From Pyrinomonadaceae bacterium (GTDB lineage: Bacteria > Acidobacteriota > Blastocatellia > Pyrinomonadales > Pyrinomonadaceae), in the NCBI GenBank assembly GCA_046594975.1, contig JBKJRA010000073.1, positions 1 to 27,424 of the forward strand: 27,424 nt of DNA. The letters are read 5' to 3'. Numbering within the stretch: position 1 is the first letter of the stretch; each line of letters opens with the position of its first letter. The translations under genes and the position numbers were made by a program. Positions 18,725 to 23,615 of this stretch are shown in pieces. The notes under the pieces are model-generated. The model saw nothing but the letters and a program-made list of their open reading frames with translations, was not told where the DNA came from and ran no database searches.

Positions 18725-19474
18725 TTAGGTTATCGCTCCGCCGTCGACGATGACGACTTCACCGCTCATAAAGCTGTTGCGGTCGCTGGTCATGAAGGCG
18801 GCGTATTCGGCTAGTTCTTCCGGGCGGCCGAGACGGCCTTTGGAGACCCAAAAATCGTGCATTTGTAGCAGGCGTTCAGGCAGGGTGTTGCCGAGATCCG
18901 TGTCGAAAATGCCGGCGGCAATGGCATTAACAGTTATGCCGAAATTAGCGGCTTCGCGTGAGAGGCACTTAGTAAAACCGATCATCGCTGCTTTTGAGGT
19001 AGCGTAATGCACAGATGTGGGCAGGCTCCGCATCGCTCCAACCGAGGTGATATTAAGTATCGAGCCCGCGCGTTCGCGGATCATTTGTTTATAAAAAGGT
19101 TTGGTGACGGCAAACAGGCTGCCGACATTGGTATCGACAACGTAGTCCCAGCTTTTATCGGTAGTCGTTGCGAAATTGTCGGGTTTATTGACCGCCGCAT
19201 TATTGACCAGAACATTGATCGACCCCCATGCATCCTTGATCTCGCGGGCGATGTGTTTCATACCGACGCGGTCGGTAACGGAAACTTTGAATGCGAGAGC
19301 ACGGCGGCCGTGAGCCTCGATCTTTCGTTTTATTTCCTCGGCGAGGTCGTCACGCGAGTGATAATTGAACGCCACATCTGCACCCTCACGGGCAAAGACT
19401 TCGCAGATAGCGGCTCCGATGCCACGCGTTCCACCCGACACAAAAGCACGTTTTCCTTCAAGTAAAAGACTCAA
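18725..19474 (-). CDS. SDR family oxidoreductase (FabG-like)
   Basis: SGGTRGIG, VNNA and YATSK motifs; TTG start with GGAG RBS. Confidence 0.92.
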   Translation of the reverse strand: MSLLLEGKRAFVSGGTRGIGAAICEVFAREGADVAFNYHSRDDLAEEIKRKIEAHGRRALAFKVSVTDRVGMKHIAREIKDAWGSINVLVNNAAVNKPDNFATTTDKSWDYVVDTNVGSLFAVTKPFYKQMIRERAGSILNITSVGAMRSLPTSVHYATSKAAMIGFTKCLSREAANFGITVNAIAAGIFDTDLGNTLPERLLQMHDFWVSKGRLGRPEELAEYAAFMTSDRNSFMSGEVVIVDGGAIT

Positions 19475-19562: not shown

Positions 19563-20738
19563 TTAGACAGGCGGTGCGGCGGCCTGTGCCTTTGGCCAAA
19601 GGGCATTGATCTCGTTGATGATATATTCAGTCGAATTTGGCATTGTCATCCCAATGGTCGCGGCTTTCATTCGCGAGTACTGACCGTTATCAGCGATAAG
19701 ATTCTGGATGGTGGGGACAATATCGATGGAGCGTTTGAGCAAAATGCCTGCACCGCGCCGTTCGATAAGATGCGAAGTTCCAGCTTCCTGCGGCATCGGC
19801 GGTGTCGTCAAGTCTGCAATGATCGGCAATCTACATGCTAATGCTTCGAATGTCGTCAATCCGCCAAGTTTTGAGATCATCACGTTGGCTGATTGCATAA
19901 CTTTTTCGATCTCGTCGGAATAGCCAATGACCTTGATCGGAAATTTGGCGGTCTTGGCGAGACGCTCGGCTTCGAGCCGAAGTTCTTCGTTTTTACCCGC
20001 GAGAAAGATCGCCTGAACGTCAAATTCACCGCGGACAAACTCTTTGAAGATCTTAGGAATATTGCCACCGCCGATCCAACCTGCATTAACGAACACCGTA
20101 AATTTGTCAGGGTCGAGTCCATAAACCCGACGGGCGTTTTGAGCGTCCTGCTCATCGATCTCGTGAAATTTCGGATCGACCGGCATACCCGATATCTTGA
20201 TCCGCTCGGGCGATATACCGTAATCGACGAGTTGACGCTCGGCATCCTCATTTGCCACCAGGTAAAGTGATACATCATCACACGCCCAGCCTTTCCAAAA
20301 CCCGTAACATGGATCAGTTACAACAGTTACAAGTGGAACCTTATCTATCAGATTAAGTTCGCGAAGGATGCGTGCAAAGATATGCTGCGTCAGAGGATGC
20401 ACGCTAACGACGATATGCGGACACCATTTTTCAAATTGACCCCGAACATACCCAATGCAGCGTTTGTGAAAAAACTCACGAGTCTCAGGGCGTATTTTAT
20501 TCATCGCCCAATAGAGATATTTCATCCAATGCTGCTTGTGTTGCAGCGTCCAGTTATATAGATTGACGAGCTTTTCTGTAACGTGATGCGAATCCTCAAC
20601 CGCCTTTATCGTCCGGACCGCCGCAGACTCGCCTTTCCAAAATTTCTCTAATCCATCGGCGATCGTTTTAGCCGCAGAGCGGTGCCCGCCACCGGTATCG
20701 GAGGAAATTATTAGAATTTTTGGAGTATTGGGCTGCAT
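19563..20738 (-). CDS. MGDG synthase / UgtP-like diacylglycerol glycosyltransferase (GT28-like)
   Basis: SSDTGGGHRSAA, PLVTVVTD, GMPVDPKF and SKLGGLTTFEA motifs. Confidence 0.85.
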   Translation of the reverse strand: MQPNTPKILIISSDTGGGHRSAAKTIADGLEKFWKGESAAVRTIKAVEDSHHVTEKLVNLYNWTLQHKQHWMKYLYWAMNKIRPETREFFHKRCIGYVRGQFEKWCPHIVVSVHPLTQHIFARILRELNLIDKVPLVTVVTDPCYGFWKGWACDDVSLYLVANEDAERQLVDYGISPERIKISGMPVDPKFHEIDEQDAQNARRVYGLDPDKFTVFVNAGWIGGGNIPKIFKEFVRGEFDVQAIFLAGKNEELRLEAERLAKTAKFPIKVIGYSDEIEKVMQSANVMISKLGGLTTFEALACRLPIIADLTTPPMPQEAGTSHLIERRGAGILLKRSIDIVPTIQNLIADNGQYSRMKAATIGMTMPNSTEYIINEINALWPKAQAAAPPV

Positions 20739-20747
20739 TGAAATAGA

Positions 20748-20978
20748 ATTTGGTGTGGTGGGATTTCAACCCACATGCCGTGCTTTCGCTCACAATTTTT
20801 CGGATTTAGTCACCAGCGTATCAGTATTAATGTCTTCGCCGGATCGTGAGCCAAGTCCCCTAAAGAGCGGTCCGGTATAGCTCCGGTAGGCAATGCATCC
20901 TCTTGCGCATGCTGACTTCATATCAGGCATCTCTGCCCACCACTCACTCATGCGGTTCGCACCCGCTGCACACCAAAT
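20748..20978 (-). ncRNA. Unclassified 231-nt structured RNA-like element
   Basis: Perfect 10-bp terminal pairing ATTTGGTGTG/CACACCAAAT; hairpins GCGG-GTGCGAA-CCGC, GGCA-GAGA-TGCC and GTGGG-TTGAAAT-CCCAC; 9-bp helix GCTCACGAT/ATTGTGAGC whose G-U pair exists only on the minus strand. Confidence 0.55.
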
Positions 20979-20980
20979 AT

Positions 20981-22141
20981 TTATGCCTTTAACGCAACTT
21001 CCTTAGCCGCGAGAAAGCTAGCATTTTTTGCGGCTTTCTTCATTTGCCCCTCGAGTTTGATGATATTTATCAAATGCCCGGGATTTAGAGGCAATGACGG
21101 GTAGAAACAGTTTGACTCGTGTGTACAGTAACAGCCATCTGCGACCTCTTTACGGCGCTCTTTCATTAGGTTGGTTTTCCAAGCGGCCTGAAAATCCCAT
21201 TCGTAATCGCGTAAATTGAGCACGTCGGTCTTGTTTTCGCATGACGAAAGGGCACCGTTGTCGTATATCACGGCACCTGCCGAGCCGGCGTAACATTTGA
21301 GCTGCGCCTTGCCTTCTTCCTTAGTTTTGGCAATGATATCGTGCATGTAAATATCGACCGCCGCCTTAAAAAAGCCCGAATTACCGCCGTAATTATTTTT
21401 GAGAGTTGCGTCTTTAGTATCCTCCAGGATCATCTGAGATAACTGCTGATAACGCTTGTGGTCAAACTGCAATTCGATCGGATCGGCCGACGGCGGGCGA
21501 ATATAGTTGATGTTCACCTTATCCGGTTTGAGGTCATATTTTAGAAAATCGTACCAGTCAAAGATCGTGTCCTCGTTTGAGTGCATCACGCATGTACAGG
21601 TTTGAATGTCGAGCCGCGGATATTGCTCTTTTTTCATCTGCTGTAAGGTCCGGGCCGTATGGATAGCTTTGTCCCAGCTCCCCTCTTTGCGGCGGATCTT
21701 TTCATGAGCGTCTTTCATACCGTCGATGCCGAGCGCAACGCTGACGTTTAGATTCGGGCATTCGTCCATTATCTGAGCTACATCCGGGAAAATTCGCGGA
21801 TGGATCTGGCCGTTTGACATCAGATACACCGAATCGAGTTTGTTGTTTTCGTAGAATGCACGGACGATCTGCGGCAGGTCCTTTCGCGTAAACGGCTCAC
21901 CTCCGGCGAGCACGAGCACACCGAGATTACCGCCAAGCGTTTCTGAGATCTTCGCGATCTCGTCGGTCTTCATCTGCAGCTTTTTACGCGGCCTGTCGTC
22001 CAATTCTTCAGTAAAAAAGCAGTGCGTGCAGCGCATGTCGCAGACGCTTGTCACCAAAATATTCAAAAACACAGGCGAGATCGGTCGTCCGACCAAAATG
22101 CCTGCGTATCTCTTAAAGATCTCTTTTGTTGCAAAATCCAT
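20981..22141 (-). CDS. Radical SAM protein with C-terminal SPASM/twitch-like cysteines
   Basis: CDMRCTHC (CxxxCxxC), GGEPF, CYAG...SSCE...GCYCTHE. Confidence 0.9.
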   Translation of the reverse strand: MDFATKEIFKRYAGILVGRPISPVFLNILVTSVCDMRCTHCFFTEELDDRPRKKLQMKTDEIAKISETLGGNLGVLVLAGGEPFTRKDLPQIVRAFYENNKLDSVYLMSNGQIHPRIFPDVAQIMDECPNLNVSVALGIDGMKDAHEKIRRKEGSWDKAIHTARTLQQMKKEQYPRLDIQTCTCVMHSNEDTIFDWYDFLKYDLKPDKVNINYIRPPSADPIELQFDHKRYQQLSQMILEDTKDATLKNNYGGNSGFFKAAVDIYMHDIIAKTKEEGKAQLKCYAGSAGAVIYDNGALSSCENKTDVLNLRDYEWDFQAAWKTNLMKERRKEVADGCYCTHESNCFYPSLPLNPGHLINIIKLEGQMKKAAKNASFLAAKEVALKA

Positions 22142-22436: not shown

Positions 22437-23615
22437 ATGTTTCGTCGTATTTATCTTGATAATAGTGCAACCACGCCCGTCGATCCTTTGGTCGTTGAGG
22501 CGATGCTTCCTTATTTGATGGGCAAATACGGAAACGCGTCAAGCATTCATTTTTTCGGTCAGGAAGCCCGTGCCGCCATCGACAAGGCCCGTCATCAGGT
22601 AGCAGCTCTGATAAATGCACGTCCGAATGAGGTCGTATTTACTTCAGGTGGTACCGAGTCTAATAATCTCGCGATCCGCGGACTTGTCGAATCGAATAAT
22701 AAATACGGCAGGCACATAATCACATCTGCGATCGAGCATTCTGCCGTGCTTAACGTCTGCCAAGATCTCGAAAAGCAGGGATATACAGTCACTTATCTGC
22801 CCGTGTATGAAAACGGCATTATTAGAACTGATGATCTAAGAGCTGCGGTAAAAGAAGATACGATCCTACTCTCAGTTATGACTGCAAATAATGAGATCGG
22901 CACGATCCAGCCGGTGGGTGAGATCGGGCATCTTGTAAAAGATCTGCGTGCTGACGGTAAAAAAATCTGGTTTCATACCGATGCAGTTCAAGCCGCAGGA
23001 AAAATGCCGCTCGATGTCGAAGATATTGGCTGCGATCTTTTGTCTATTTCAGCCCATAAAATATACGCACCGAAAGGCGTTGGAGCGTTGTACGTTCGCC
23101 GAGGCGTGCGGCTGCATTCGCAAAATATCGGTGGCCATCAGGAACGTGAGCTTCGAGGCGGCACGGAGTCCGTGCCCAACATAGTCGCTTTTGGTAAAGC
23201 CGCAGAAATGGCACAGCAAGATCTGGCCAATGCCTCAAAATCGTTGAAAGCGATGCGCGACGAATTTGAAAACAAGGTCGGCGAGGCGATTCCCGATATT
23301 GTTTTCAATGGCGAACGCGAACAACGCCTTCCTAATATCTCAAACATATCTTTTCGAGCTGTCGAGGGGGAGGGACTCTTGATCAATCTCGATATGCAGG
23401 GCGTTGCCGTTTCGACCGGTTCTGCCTGCTCGTCCGGATCGCTCGAACCGTCTCCAGTCATCCGAGCCCTCGGCCGCGACGACGAACTAGCTCGCGGTGC
23501 GATCCGCTTTAGTTTTGGCCGTTATAATATTGCCGGAGACATTGAGCATGTGTTGAGCGTCCTCCCCGCTGCTGTCGAAAACCTCCGAAGTTTGTCGCCT
23601 TTGCATCGAAAATAA
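22437..23615 (+). CDS. iscS: Cysteine desulfurase (IscS/NifS group I)
   Basis: YLDNSATTP, HTDAVQA, HKIYAPKG (PLP lysine) and STGSACSS (catalytic Cys) motifs. Confidence 0.9.
   Translation: MFRRIYLDNSATTPVDPLVVEAMLPYLMGKYGNASSIHFFGQEARAAIDKARHQVAALINARPNEVVFTSGGTESNNLAIRGLVESNNKYGRHIITSAIEHSAVLNVCQDLEKQGYTVTYLPVYENGIIRTDDLRAAVKEDTILLSVMTANNEIGTIQPVGEIGHLVKDLRADGKKIWFHTDAVQAAGKMPLDVEDIGCDLLSISAHKIYAPKGVGALYVRRGVRLHSQNIGGHQERELRGGTESVPNIVAFGKAAEMAQQDLANASKSLKAMRDEFENKVGEAIPDIVFNGEREQRLPNISNISFRAVEGEGLLINLDMQGVAVSTGSACSSGSLEPSPVIRALGRDDELARGAIRFSFGRYNIAGDIEHVLSVLPAAVENLRSLSPLHRK

Follow-up and report, generated by a model that had tools for sequence, protein, structure and literature searches.

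A conserved tRNA-shaped RNA element in an operon junction of Pyrinomonadaceae

The stretch of DNA analysed here, hereafter the window, comprises 27,424 nt of contig JBKJRA010000073.1 (assembly GCA_046594975.1, positions 1 to 27,424) from a bacterium of the Pyrinomonadaceae, a family of soil Acidobacteriota; the contig is part of a metagenome-assembled genome that is 70 % complete. On the minus strand of the window, the junction between a gene for a radical SAM protein and a gene for a glycosyltransferase is filled by an element of 231 nt, and comparison with related species leads us to conclude that a real non-coding RNA of about 230 nt is encoded here, one that is structured and kept by purifying selection. 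By the same kind of evidence it is a tRNA-mimic non-coding RNA that falls outside every described family, and it belongs to a set of alternative contents of this one junction in the genus, the others being HicAB, Uma2 and RelE-like cassettes or no insert at all. The element starts 2 nt after the radical SAM stop codon (TAA, 20983-20981) and ends 9 nt (TCTATTTCA) before the ATG of the glycosyltransferase gene (20738-20736), a position and spacing that an earlier note, made from the letters of the window, had given exactly. Since no promoter-like or terminator-like site was found on the minus strand near the element, it is presumably co-transcribed, as the sense strand, within the operon formed by the radical SAM gene, the glycosyltransferase gene and a gene for a short-chain dehydrogenase/reductase (SDR).

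A BLAST search of the 190 other species genomes of the genus, one of the checks proposed in the earlier note, returned four full-length copies that are 81-85 % identical to the one in the window (genomes G095, G205, G154 and G201). Carriers therefore account for five of the 191 species genomes of this one Pyrinomonadaceae genus, with a single copy per genome and each copy in the same radical SAM/glycosyltransferase junction. Pairwise identity among the five elements is 79-87 %, compared with 40-59 % at the third codon positions of the flanking genes, a figure that also holds for the 60 codons adjoining the element, and in the five-species comparison the limits of the conserved block coincide exactly with the ends of the closing helix. 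The difference in identity and the confinement of conservation to these limits argue that the element is under purifying selection. A covariance model built from the five copies (R1) found no additional member in 150 genomes of the genus, 150 of the class and 150 of the phylum, and a pattern scan of genome contigs returned just the four copies already known. When metagenomes were scanned with a pattern made of a 17-nt invariant block and a gapped tail, 12 matches were obtained, all of them chance matches in GC-rich coding DNA and none fitting the model; viral contigs, phage records and plasmid records held no match to the element, and no sequence homologue was found outside the genus.

A coding reading of the block was rejected. 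The earlier note had seen no open reading frame (ORF) in it; one of 53 aa does lie within the element, but the frame is disrupted by indels of 1 and 2 nt in two species, and the product has no relative among 5.8 billion predicted proteins.

The strong evidence for an RNA comes from the way in which the five copies have diverged. Their RNAalifold consensus contains 62 pairs in 11 helices, with 97.1 % of the cells paired. Seven pairs, located in helices 1, 4, 5 and 6, have changed on both sides while pairing was retained: the closing helix, the tip of the second arm (arm 2) and a small hairpin account for two each, and the basal stem of the third arm (arm 3) for one. None of 500 shuffles reached seven, and controls in which the pairing partners were slid gave at most two. 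In the consensus fold, 21 G-U cells stand against 3 A-C cells, and the alignment folds to -75.3 kcal/mol in the sense orientation versus -64.1 kcal/mol in antisense; the excess of G-U pairs and the better sense-strand fold both point to the sense strand of the operon. At the level of comparative analysis, the five copies thus show that selection has kept a folded RNA on the sense strand, in which a tRNA-like acceptor/T/D frame bears two sizeable conserved additions.

The ends of the element form a helix, P1 (ATTTGGTGTG/CACACCAAAT), which in the window copy is 10 bp long and perfectly paired, as had been noted earlier; three other species have a P1 of 9-10 bp, and in G201 it measures exactly 7 bp. 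The junction that P1 closes is five-way, with connectors of 2, 1, 0, 2 and 0 nt that are those of class II tRNAs, and the order of parts is likewise the class II order: acceptor, 2 nt, D arm, 1 nt, anticodon arm, long variable arm, T arm, acceptor. The D-like hairpin, already recognized in the earlier note as a GCGG-GTGCGAA-CCGC hairpin, is preceded by the connector CA and followed by a single A, and its loop reads GUG(C/U)GAA across the copies. Two nucleotides separate arm 3 from the T-like hairpin (GTGGG-TTGAAAT-CCCAC in the earlier note), which abuts the 3' strand of P1 directly, with 0 nt between them; the T loop of G201 has the canonical sequence UUCAAAU. The likeness to the T-arm/acceptor geometry of tRNA and tmRNA that the earlier note had drawn is therefore real, and it extends to a D-like arm and to class II connectivity; with this geometry confirmed, processing of the RNase P type, as the note had proposed, stays plausible on the basis of sequence.

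Between these tRNA-like parts lie the two additions. Arm 2 starts from a UGA/UCA base, which is followed by an internal loop rich in purines, where tandem G-A pairs are possible, and by a hypervariable tip hairpin that has undergone two double and three single-sided changes, with G-U pairs among its forms. Its terminal loop is 4-6 nt long and variable in sequence, and hence is not an anticodon loop. Two local structures proposed earlier were modified by the comparison: the hairpin GGCA-GAGA-TGCC is present and kept by covariation, whereas the GNRA character of its loop is not kept (4-6 nt, variable sequence), and the hairpin TGA-TATGAAG-TCA is lost in three of the five species, its UCA pairing instead with an invariant UGA upstream. 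Arm 3 follows without a connector and begins with a basal stem of 7 bp (20905-20912 with 20777-20783) that leads into a four-way junction, from which hairpins at 20887-20902, 20872-20886 and 20858-20867 and a long hairpin at 20785-20854 can be traced. Apart from the compensatory changes listed for this arm in the table, its helices are invariant or altered on one side. The long-range helix with a G-U pair that had been noted is present as CTCACGAT/ATTGTGAG; a further helix, ATGAGTG/CACGGCAT, does not exist in the homologues. Invariant runs also occur among the unpaired nucleotides of the element, the longest being UAAAUCCGA.

Table. Coordinates in the window of the RNA element, its parts and the adjoining operon genes
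Feature	Position	Strand	Basis
Entire tRNA-shaped non-coding RNA element, 231 nt	20748..20978	-	Block kept in five species
P1, 5' strand; closing, acceptor-like helix	20969..20978	-	U-A to C-G twice, alignment columns 6/230 and 9/227
D-arm-like hairpin, GCGG-GUGCGAA-CCGC	20952..20966	-	Stem invariant in five species; aligns to the D arm of a real tRNA-Tyr
Arm 2, at the anticodon-arm position, 38 nt	20913..20950	-	Tip hairpin 20924-20939 covaries
Arm 3, at the class II variable-arm position, 136 nt	20777..20912	-	Compensatory changes: one in the basal stem, two in hairpin 20887-20902
Conserved 16-nt asymmetric internal loop UGACUAAAUCCGAAAA in the long hairpin; candidate site of contact with a partner	20797..20812	-	Longest invariant unpaired run UAAAUCCGA
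T-arm-like hairpin, GUGGG-UUGAAAU-CCCAC	20758..20774	-	Stem invariant; same as the T stem of host tRNA-Ser(CGA) and tRNA-Sec
P1, 3' strand; abuts the T arm, no CCA after it	20748..20757	-	Sequence comparison
Radical SAM protein gene, upstream context	20981..22141	-	Pfam Radical_SAM, 3.5e-16
Glycosyltransferase gene, like monogalactosyldiacylglycerol (MGDG) synthase/diglucosyl-diacylglycerol synthase, downstream context	19563..20738	-	Pfam MGDG_synth, 1.3e-20
FabG-like SDR gene, third gene of the operon, context	18725..19474	-	Family searches

No NCBIfam match reached its curated cut-off for the radical SAM protein, and for the glycosyltransferase the match to PRK13609 (1e-46) stays under the cut-off of that model. 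Divergent from the operon, a class V aminotransferase with the fold of the NifS/cysteine desulfurase family is encoded at 22437-23615 on the plus strand of the window.

How far the likeness to tRNA goes can be judged from matches of the model and from features of the fold. P1, with its minimum of 7 bp in G201, abuts in coaxial fashion a 5-bp T stem with a 7-nt T loop, as in tRNA. At E<=0.01, the matches of R1 in the genus, class and phylum genomes comprised global ones and, in the genus search, a few short local matches to one hairpin; every global match that was checked is a class II tRNA gene, namely tRNA-Ser(CGA), tRNA-Ser(UGA) or tRNA-Tyr, with 20-31 bits. In the genome of the window itself, the sole other match at E<=1 is the tRNA-Sec gene selC (15 bits). 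The last 33-37 nt of the element (the 3' strand of the variable arm and the T arm, with the acceptor strand added in G201) have a tRNA-Sec of the genus as their best match in four of the five copies. At the anticodon position, by comparison, there is no stem of 5-6 bp with a 7-nt loop and U33; the arm found there measures 38 nt. No CCA is encoded, the letters that follow the element being AAU, AAA, AAG or UAA, and the host tRNA genes compared with it all end in CCA. The lack of an anticodon loop and of an encoded CCA argues for a tRNA mimic rather than a decoder.

The element has no match in Rfam 15, neither at the gathering score nor at E<=10, when the window or region is searched, in line with the earlier suggestion of an undescribed structured RNA; for the G201 copy the only Rfam match is a local one of 11 bits, between the T arm and the tmRNA model of the tRNA clan. 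ARAGORN, run for tRNA and tmRNA with introns allowed and at default thresholds, made no call, and its calls at a 70 % threshold, inconsistent and on both strands, were disregarded. A second, nested copy of tRNA-Sec in arm 3, whose long hairpin is apparently collinear with the 5' half of tRNA-Sec, was considered and dropped, its score being no different from those of shuffles or of other tRNAs.

Several observations weigh against the reading of the element as a folded, tRNA-shaped RNA: (i) five sequences exist, all from one genus, and the window copy is the most divergent of them, with two mismatches in the basal stem of arm 3; (ii) the single-sequence fold of the window copy has z = -2.17, with 6 of 200 shuffles equally good, the homologues lie between -1.8 and -3.0, and the antisense strands give similar values, so these scores are modest and do not separate the strands; (iii) the D-like stem, the T stem and helices 3, 7 and 10 are invariant or have changed on one side and have no covariation support, the D-like stem because it is invariant in all five species; (iv) hallmarks of tRNA are absent, position 8 being C instead of U, the D loop having no GG (G18G19) and T-loop position 56 being G rather than C in four of the five copies; (v) P1 is longer than 7 bp in four of the five copies; (vi) tRNA finders and the tRNA-clan models of Rfam do not call the element; and (vii) the score of R1 on real tRNAs owes much to the near-identical T arm. 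Single sequences fold only modestly better than chance, and the case for more than chance rests on the five-species comparison. The dependence of the R1 scores on the T arm, in turn, argues that the matches be read as a tRNA-derived or tRNA-mimicking frame and not as membership among tRNAs.

Three observations on tRNA genes belong beside these matches. The host genome encodes a 98-nt tRNA-Sec (selC, contig C363:2746-2843, minus strand), the closest relative of the element in its own genome, and the organism therefore probably uses selenocysteine. In other acidobacterial families (loci L079-L093), tRNA-Ser(CGA) is unusually long (95-98 nt) by virtue of a long variable arm, and these genes are the best foreign matches of R1. 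A genome of the same class (G238, 9.5 Mb) carries 13 tRNA genes within 1.6 kb (L062:80-1589), including four for tRNA-Leu and two for tRNA-Ser, an arrangement that recalls the tRNA clusters of phages and islands.

Among known RNAs, class II tRNAs (tRNA-Ser, tRNA-Sec and bacterial tRNA-Tyr) share with the element the connectivity of the arms and, in the host tRNA-Ser(CGA) and tRNA-Sec, the T stem GUGGG/CCCAC, and tRNA-Sec is similar also in the 3' strand of the variable arm and the ...CAAG junction. The element differs from them in having no 7-nt anticodon loop, U33, CCA, U8, G18 or G19, as well as in position 56. As in tmRNA, the two ends of a large RNA pair into an acceptor helix on which a T arm is stacked, and additional domains lie in between, but the element has no reading frame for a tag, no series of pseudoknots, no G3-U70 pair (3-70 is G-C) and no CCA; ARAGORN -m was negative for all five copies, and the genome has a 372-nt tmRNA of its own. 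Bacterial Y RNAs offer another parallel: YrlA reportedly contains a tRNA-like domain and ends in a Ro-binding stem, and its gene is said to lie beside rsr. Both YrlA and the element are non-decoding mimics of the acceptor, T and D arms of tRNA with an extra module, which in YrlA is protein-binding; the end of YrlA, however, is the Ro-binding stem, whereas that of the element is the acceptor-like P1, and the element has no Rfam match. No TROVE/Ro protein (PF05731) was found in the five carrier genomes, which are 68-97 % complete and in which the controls were positive, and assignment to the Y RNAs was rejected.

Cleavage signals and artificial constructs provide two further points of reference. 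tRNA-like processing signals within longer transcripts are exemplified by mascRNA of MALAT1, mitochondrial tRNA punctuation, plant t-elements and RNase P sites in operon mRNAs of E. coli. As in those cases, a tRNA-shaped module sits in a longer transcript and, by analogy, could be cut by RNase P and RNase Z to define the flanking RNA ends, but those signals are tRNA-sized or smaller and the element has about 140 nt of extra conserved structure. A tRNA frame is also used as a scaffold for the expression of RNA inserts, on which it confers processing and stability. Aptamer-tagged tRNAs carry an engineered structured RNA insert on a tRNA arm (PMC7590224). An extra structured domain grafted on an arm of a tRNA frame is common to these constructs and to the element; the former are man-made, and the latter is a candidate for their natural counterpart.

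The closest parallel in the same phylum is provided by the irregular tRNA-Sec-like RNAs of Acidobacteria, that is, allo-tRNAs and inactive allo-tRNA-like sequences, some of which have predicted five-stem junctions, which often adjoin toxin-antitoxin genes and which have been proposed to be regulatory RNAs, many of the irregular ones probably being unused in translation (Mukai et al. 2017, PMC5389517; review PMC7609411). Allo-tRNAs measure about 90-100 nt, have an anticodon loop and arrange a 12-bp acceptor branch as 8/4 or 9/3 (PMC5389517). The element shares with them the phylum, a tRNA-Sec/Ser-like frame with a long variable arm and a toxin-antitoxin neighbourhood; it differs in its length of 231 nt (more than twice theirs), in a 7/5 branch (with P1 of 9-10 bp in most copies), in lacking an anticodon loop and in its branched domain of 136 nt. 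Membership among the allo-tRNAs was rejected on the 5-bp T stem, the length and the missing anticodon loop.

The junction itself was compared in 34 species of the genus (loci including L003-L031; the window equivalent is 20739-20980). In 11 species it is an empty site of 6-23 nt, among them two of the closest relatives of the window (15 nt), which answers the question about orthologous operons raised in the earlier note. Other species have inserts there, singly or combined: HicB-HicA pairs, Uma2 nucleases, a RelE-like pair, a TPR protein and a long palindrome. Every protein cassette is co-oriented with the operon and fits into it seamlessly, beginning 1-5 nt past the radical SAM stop; most also end in a stop codon that abuts or overlaps the ATG of the glycosyltransferase gene (TAAATG, TAATG, TGATG). 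In the tree of the glycosyltransferase, the five carriers of the RNA are scattered, each with a sister species of different slot content; the sister species of the window carries a Uma2 gene. In G154, the RNA and the glycosyltransferase gene are separated by an ORF (L035:1270-1476, minus strand) for a 68-aa Cys-rich (zinc-ribbon-like) protein that matches no Pfam family, from which it follows that the slot holds two cassettes there and that the RNA is not tied to the glycosyltransferase start codon. We conclude from these comparisons that the element is an RNA-only occupant of a fast-turning, operon-embedded, hypervariable accessory slot. When the host tree was compared with the divergence of the elements, there were too few sites to separate horizontal spread from ancestral presence with many losses. 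Two junctions with other non-protein content were seen: in L028 (G001) an imperfect palindrome whose stem measures about 30 bp takes up the 82-nt junction and, resembling a repetitive extragenic palindromic sequence, is another kind of non-coding occupant, and in L021 (G051) there is a spacer of 215 nt that is unrelated to the element and has no conserved ORF and no family match. Cassettes are exchanged precisely in this slot.

A function may be sought in the tRNA-like frame. The acceptor/T minihelix of tRNA is recognized by RNase P, RNase Z and the CCA-adding enzyme. In the element, the corresponding minihelix would be recognized by RNase P on the 5' side and by the tRNA 3'-end machinery on the other, and these two activities would excise the RNA from the polycistronic transcript. 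This would yield a stable RNA with the shape of a tRNA; its conserved loops, UGACUAAAUCCGAAAA and the purine-rich one in arm 2, would bind a putative partner, and separation of the upstream and downstream mRNAs would be a by-product of the excision. That the element is cut out of the operon transcript as a stable tRNA-shaped RNA that binds a partner, and is not a mere cleavage signal, is a proposition on which we find the balance about even; its processing, its stability and its action in trans we infer by analogy. What suggests partner binding, and not a cleavage signal only, is that about 175 nt are conserved past the minihelix, unpaired invariant runs included.

The alternative that survives best is that the element acts purely in cis, as operon punctuation or a stabilizer whose cleavage or binding makes the radical SAM and glycosyltransferase mRNAs differ in stability or translation, with the excised RNA having no function. 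We hold this to be unlikely, although several features speak for it: (i) the element fills the junction exactly, from 2 nt after the stop codon to 9 nt before the ATG; (ii) it has no promoter or terminator of its own; (iii) relatives without it have a gap of 6-23 nt or a cassette whose stop codon lies at the ATG, which suggests a translational coupling that the element must replace; and (iv) an acceptor/T minihelix is a known minimal substrate of RNase P. For such a role, however, the minihelix would suffice, and yet some 175 more nucleotides are conserved, unpaired invariant runs among them; the operon does without the element in 186 of the 191 species genomes; and in G154 the element does not adjoin the glycosyltransferase gene at all.

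The patchy occurrence over the genus tree, with sister species that have other slot contents, together with a perfect 10-bp terminal inverted repeat and sharp boundaries, would also suit non-autonomous mobile DNA, like a miniature inverted-repeat transposable element (MITE) or a tRNA-derived short interspersed element, whose terminal repeats are read by a transposase or recombinase encoded elsewhere. We consider this improbable. Each of the five genomes holds a single copy in the same junction, and none was found elsewhere in the 190 genus genomes by BLAST or in about 450 by the model; no target-site duplication is present at the borders, as the earlier note had already remarked; and the terminal repeat behaves as an RNA helix, with compensatory changes and a reduction to 7 bp in one species, while G-U pairs are strand-specific and internal helices covary. 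Of the mobile element suggested in the earlier note, the MITE-like form is thus not supported; the element does behave as an exchangeable cassette and may be mobile in that looser sense. Slightly less probable again is a riboswitch or leader through which a ligand would control translation of the glycosyltransferase, with arm 3 as the aptamer and with P1 and the T arm occluding the start region. The element is indeed large and multi-branched, with conserved internal loops and with P1 closing 9 nt before the start codon. It adjoins the glycosyltransferase start in four of the five copies, and in G154 about 230 nt and a different ORF come before that gene; there is no Rfam riboswitch match even at E<=10, no alternative pairing that could serve as an expression platform and no terminator; and the same gene is regulated without the element in most species.

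The 3' end, like that of tRNA-Sec and tRNA-Ser of the genus, the absence of an anticodon loop and CCA, the rarity of the element in the genus and the two mismatches in one stem of the window copy could also belong to a decaying relic, now functionless, of a class II tRNA, tRNA-Sec or allo-tRNA pseudogene with insertions, or to the scar of a tRNA-derived attachment site. This is very improbable in view of an identity of 79-87 % across species that are near synonymous saturation, of seven compensatory pairs that preserve the fold, and of the conservation of the supposedly inserted domains as well. Hardly credible at all is a self-splicing or self-cleaving RNA (group IIC domain I, a group I intron or a new ribozyme) in fragmentary or miniature form, for which GUGCG near the 5' end, the multi-branched fold and the insertion right after a gene might be cited; the GTGCG start and the hairpins after it had prompted the likeness to group IIC introns in the earlier note. 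The invariant D-like hairpin has GUGCG in its loop, 16 nt inside the element and not at a boundary, no intron or ribozyme model of Rfam (Intron_gpII included) matches at E<=10, neither domain V or VI nor a reverse transcriptase or maturase was found, and 231 nt is far short of known group II introns, so that membership among group II introns was rejected.

Returning to the stable, excised, partner-binding RNA as the reading on which the balance is even, one may extend it, tentatively, to a possibility that we would not call probable, namely that the element represents a new class of large tRNA-scaffolded RNAs. In such RNAs a domain of about 136 nt, aptamer-like or able to bind a protein, would extend from the variable arm of a class II frame; tRNA-processing enzymes would excise the RNA, and it would travel as an RNA-only cassette that lacks a promoter and is in competition with toxin-antitoxin and nuclease cassettes for one slot. 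If this were true, a large tRNA-scaffolded RNA would be the natural counterpart of the engineered tRNA scaffold, and the competition for the slot would suggest that it takes part in the conflict or addiction biology of those cassettes, for instance by serving an enzyme directed at tRNA as decoy or cofactor.

To conclude, few non-decoding tRNA mimics are known to us, these being tmRNA, Y RNAs and the irregular tRNAs of Acidobacteria, which are themselves poorly understood. The importance of the present element is tempered by its rarity (five of 191 species genomes, in one genus), and any function is read from sequence only; it is nevertheless unusually large for a tRNA mimic, and its fold has clear comparative support. 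The sister species that carry HicAB, Uma2 nucleases or nothing in the same junction amount to a natural swap experiment. The element would thereby make several questions testable, namely whether the tRNA machinery releases a stable non-coding RNA from an mRNA, what the domains added to a tRNA frame may target, and whether RNA-only cassettes belong to the pool of toxin-antitoxin and defence genes.

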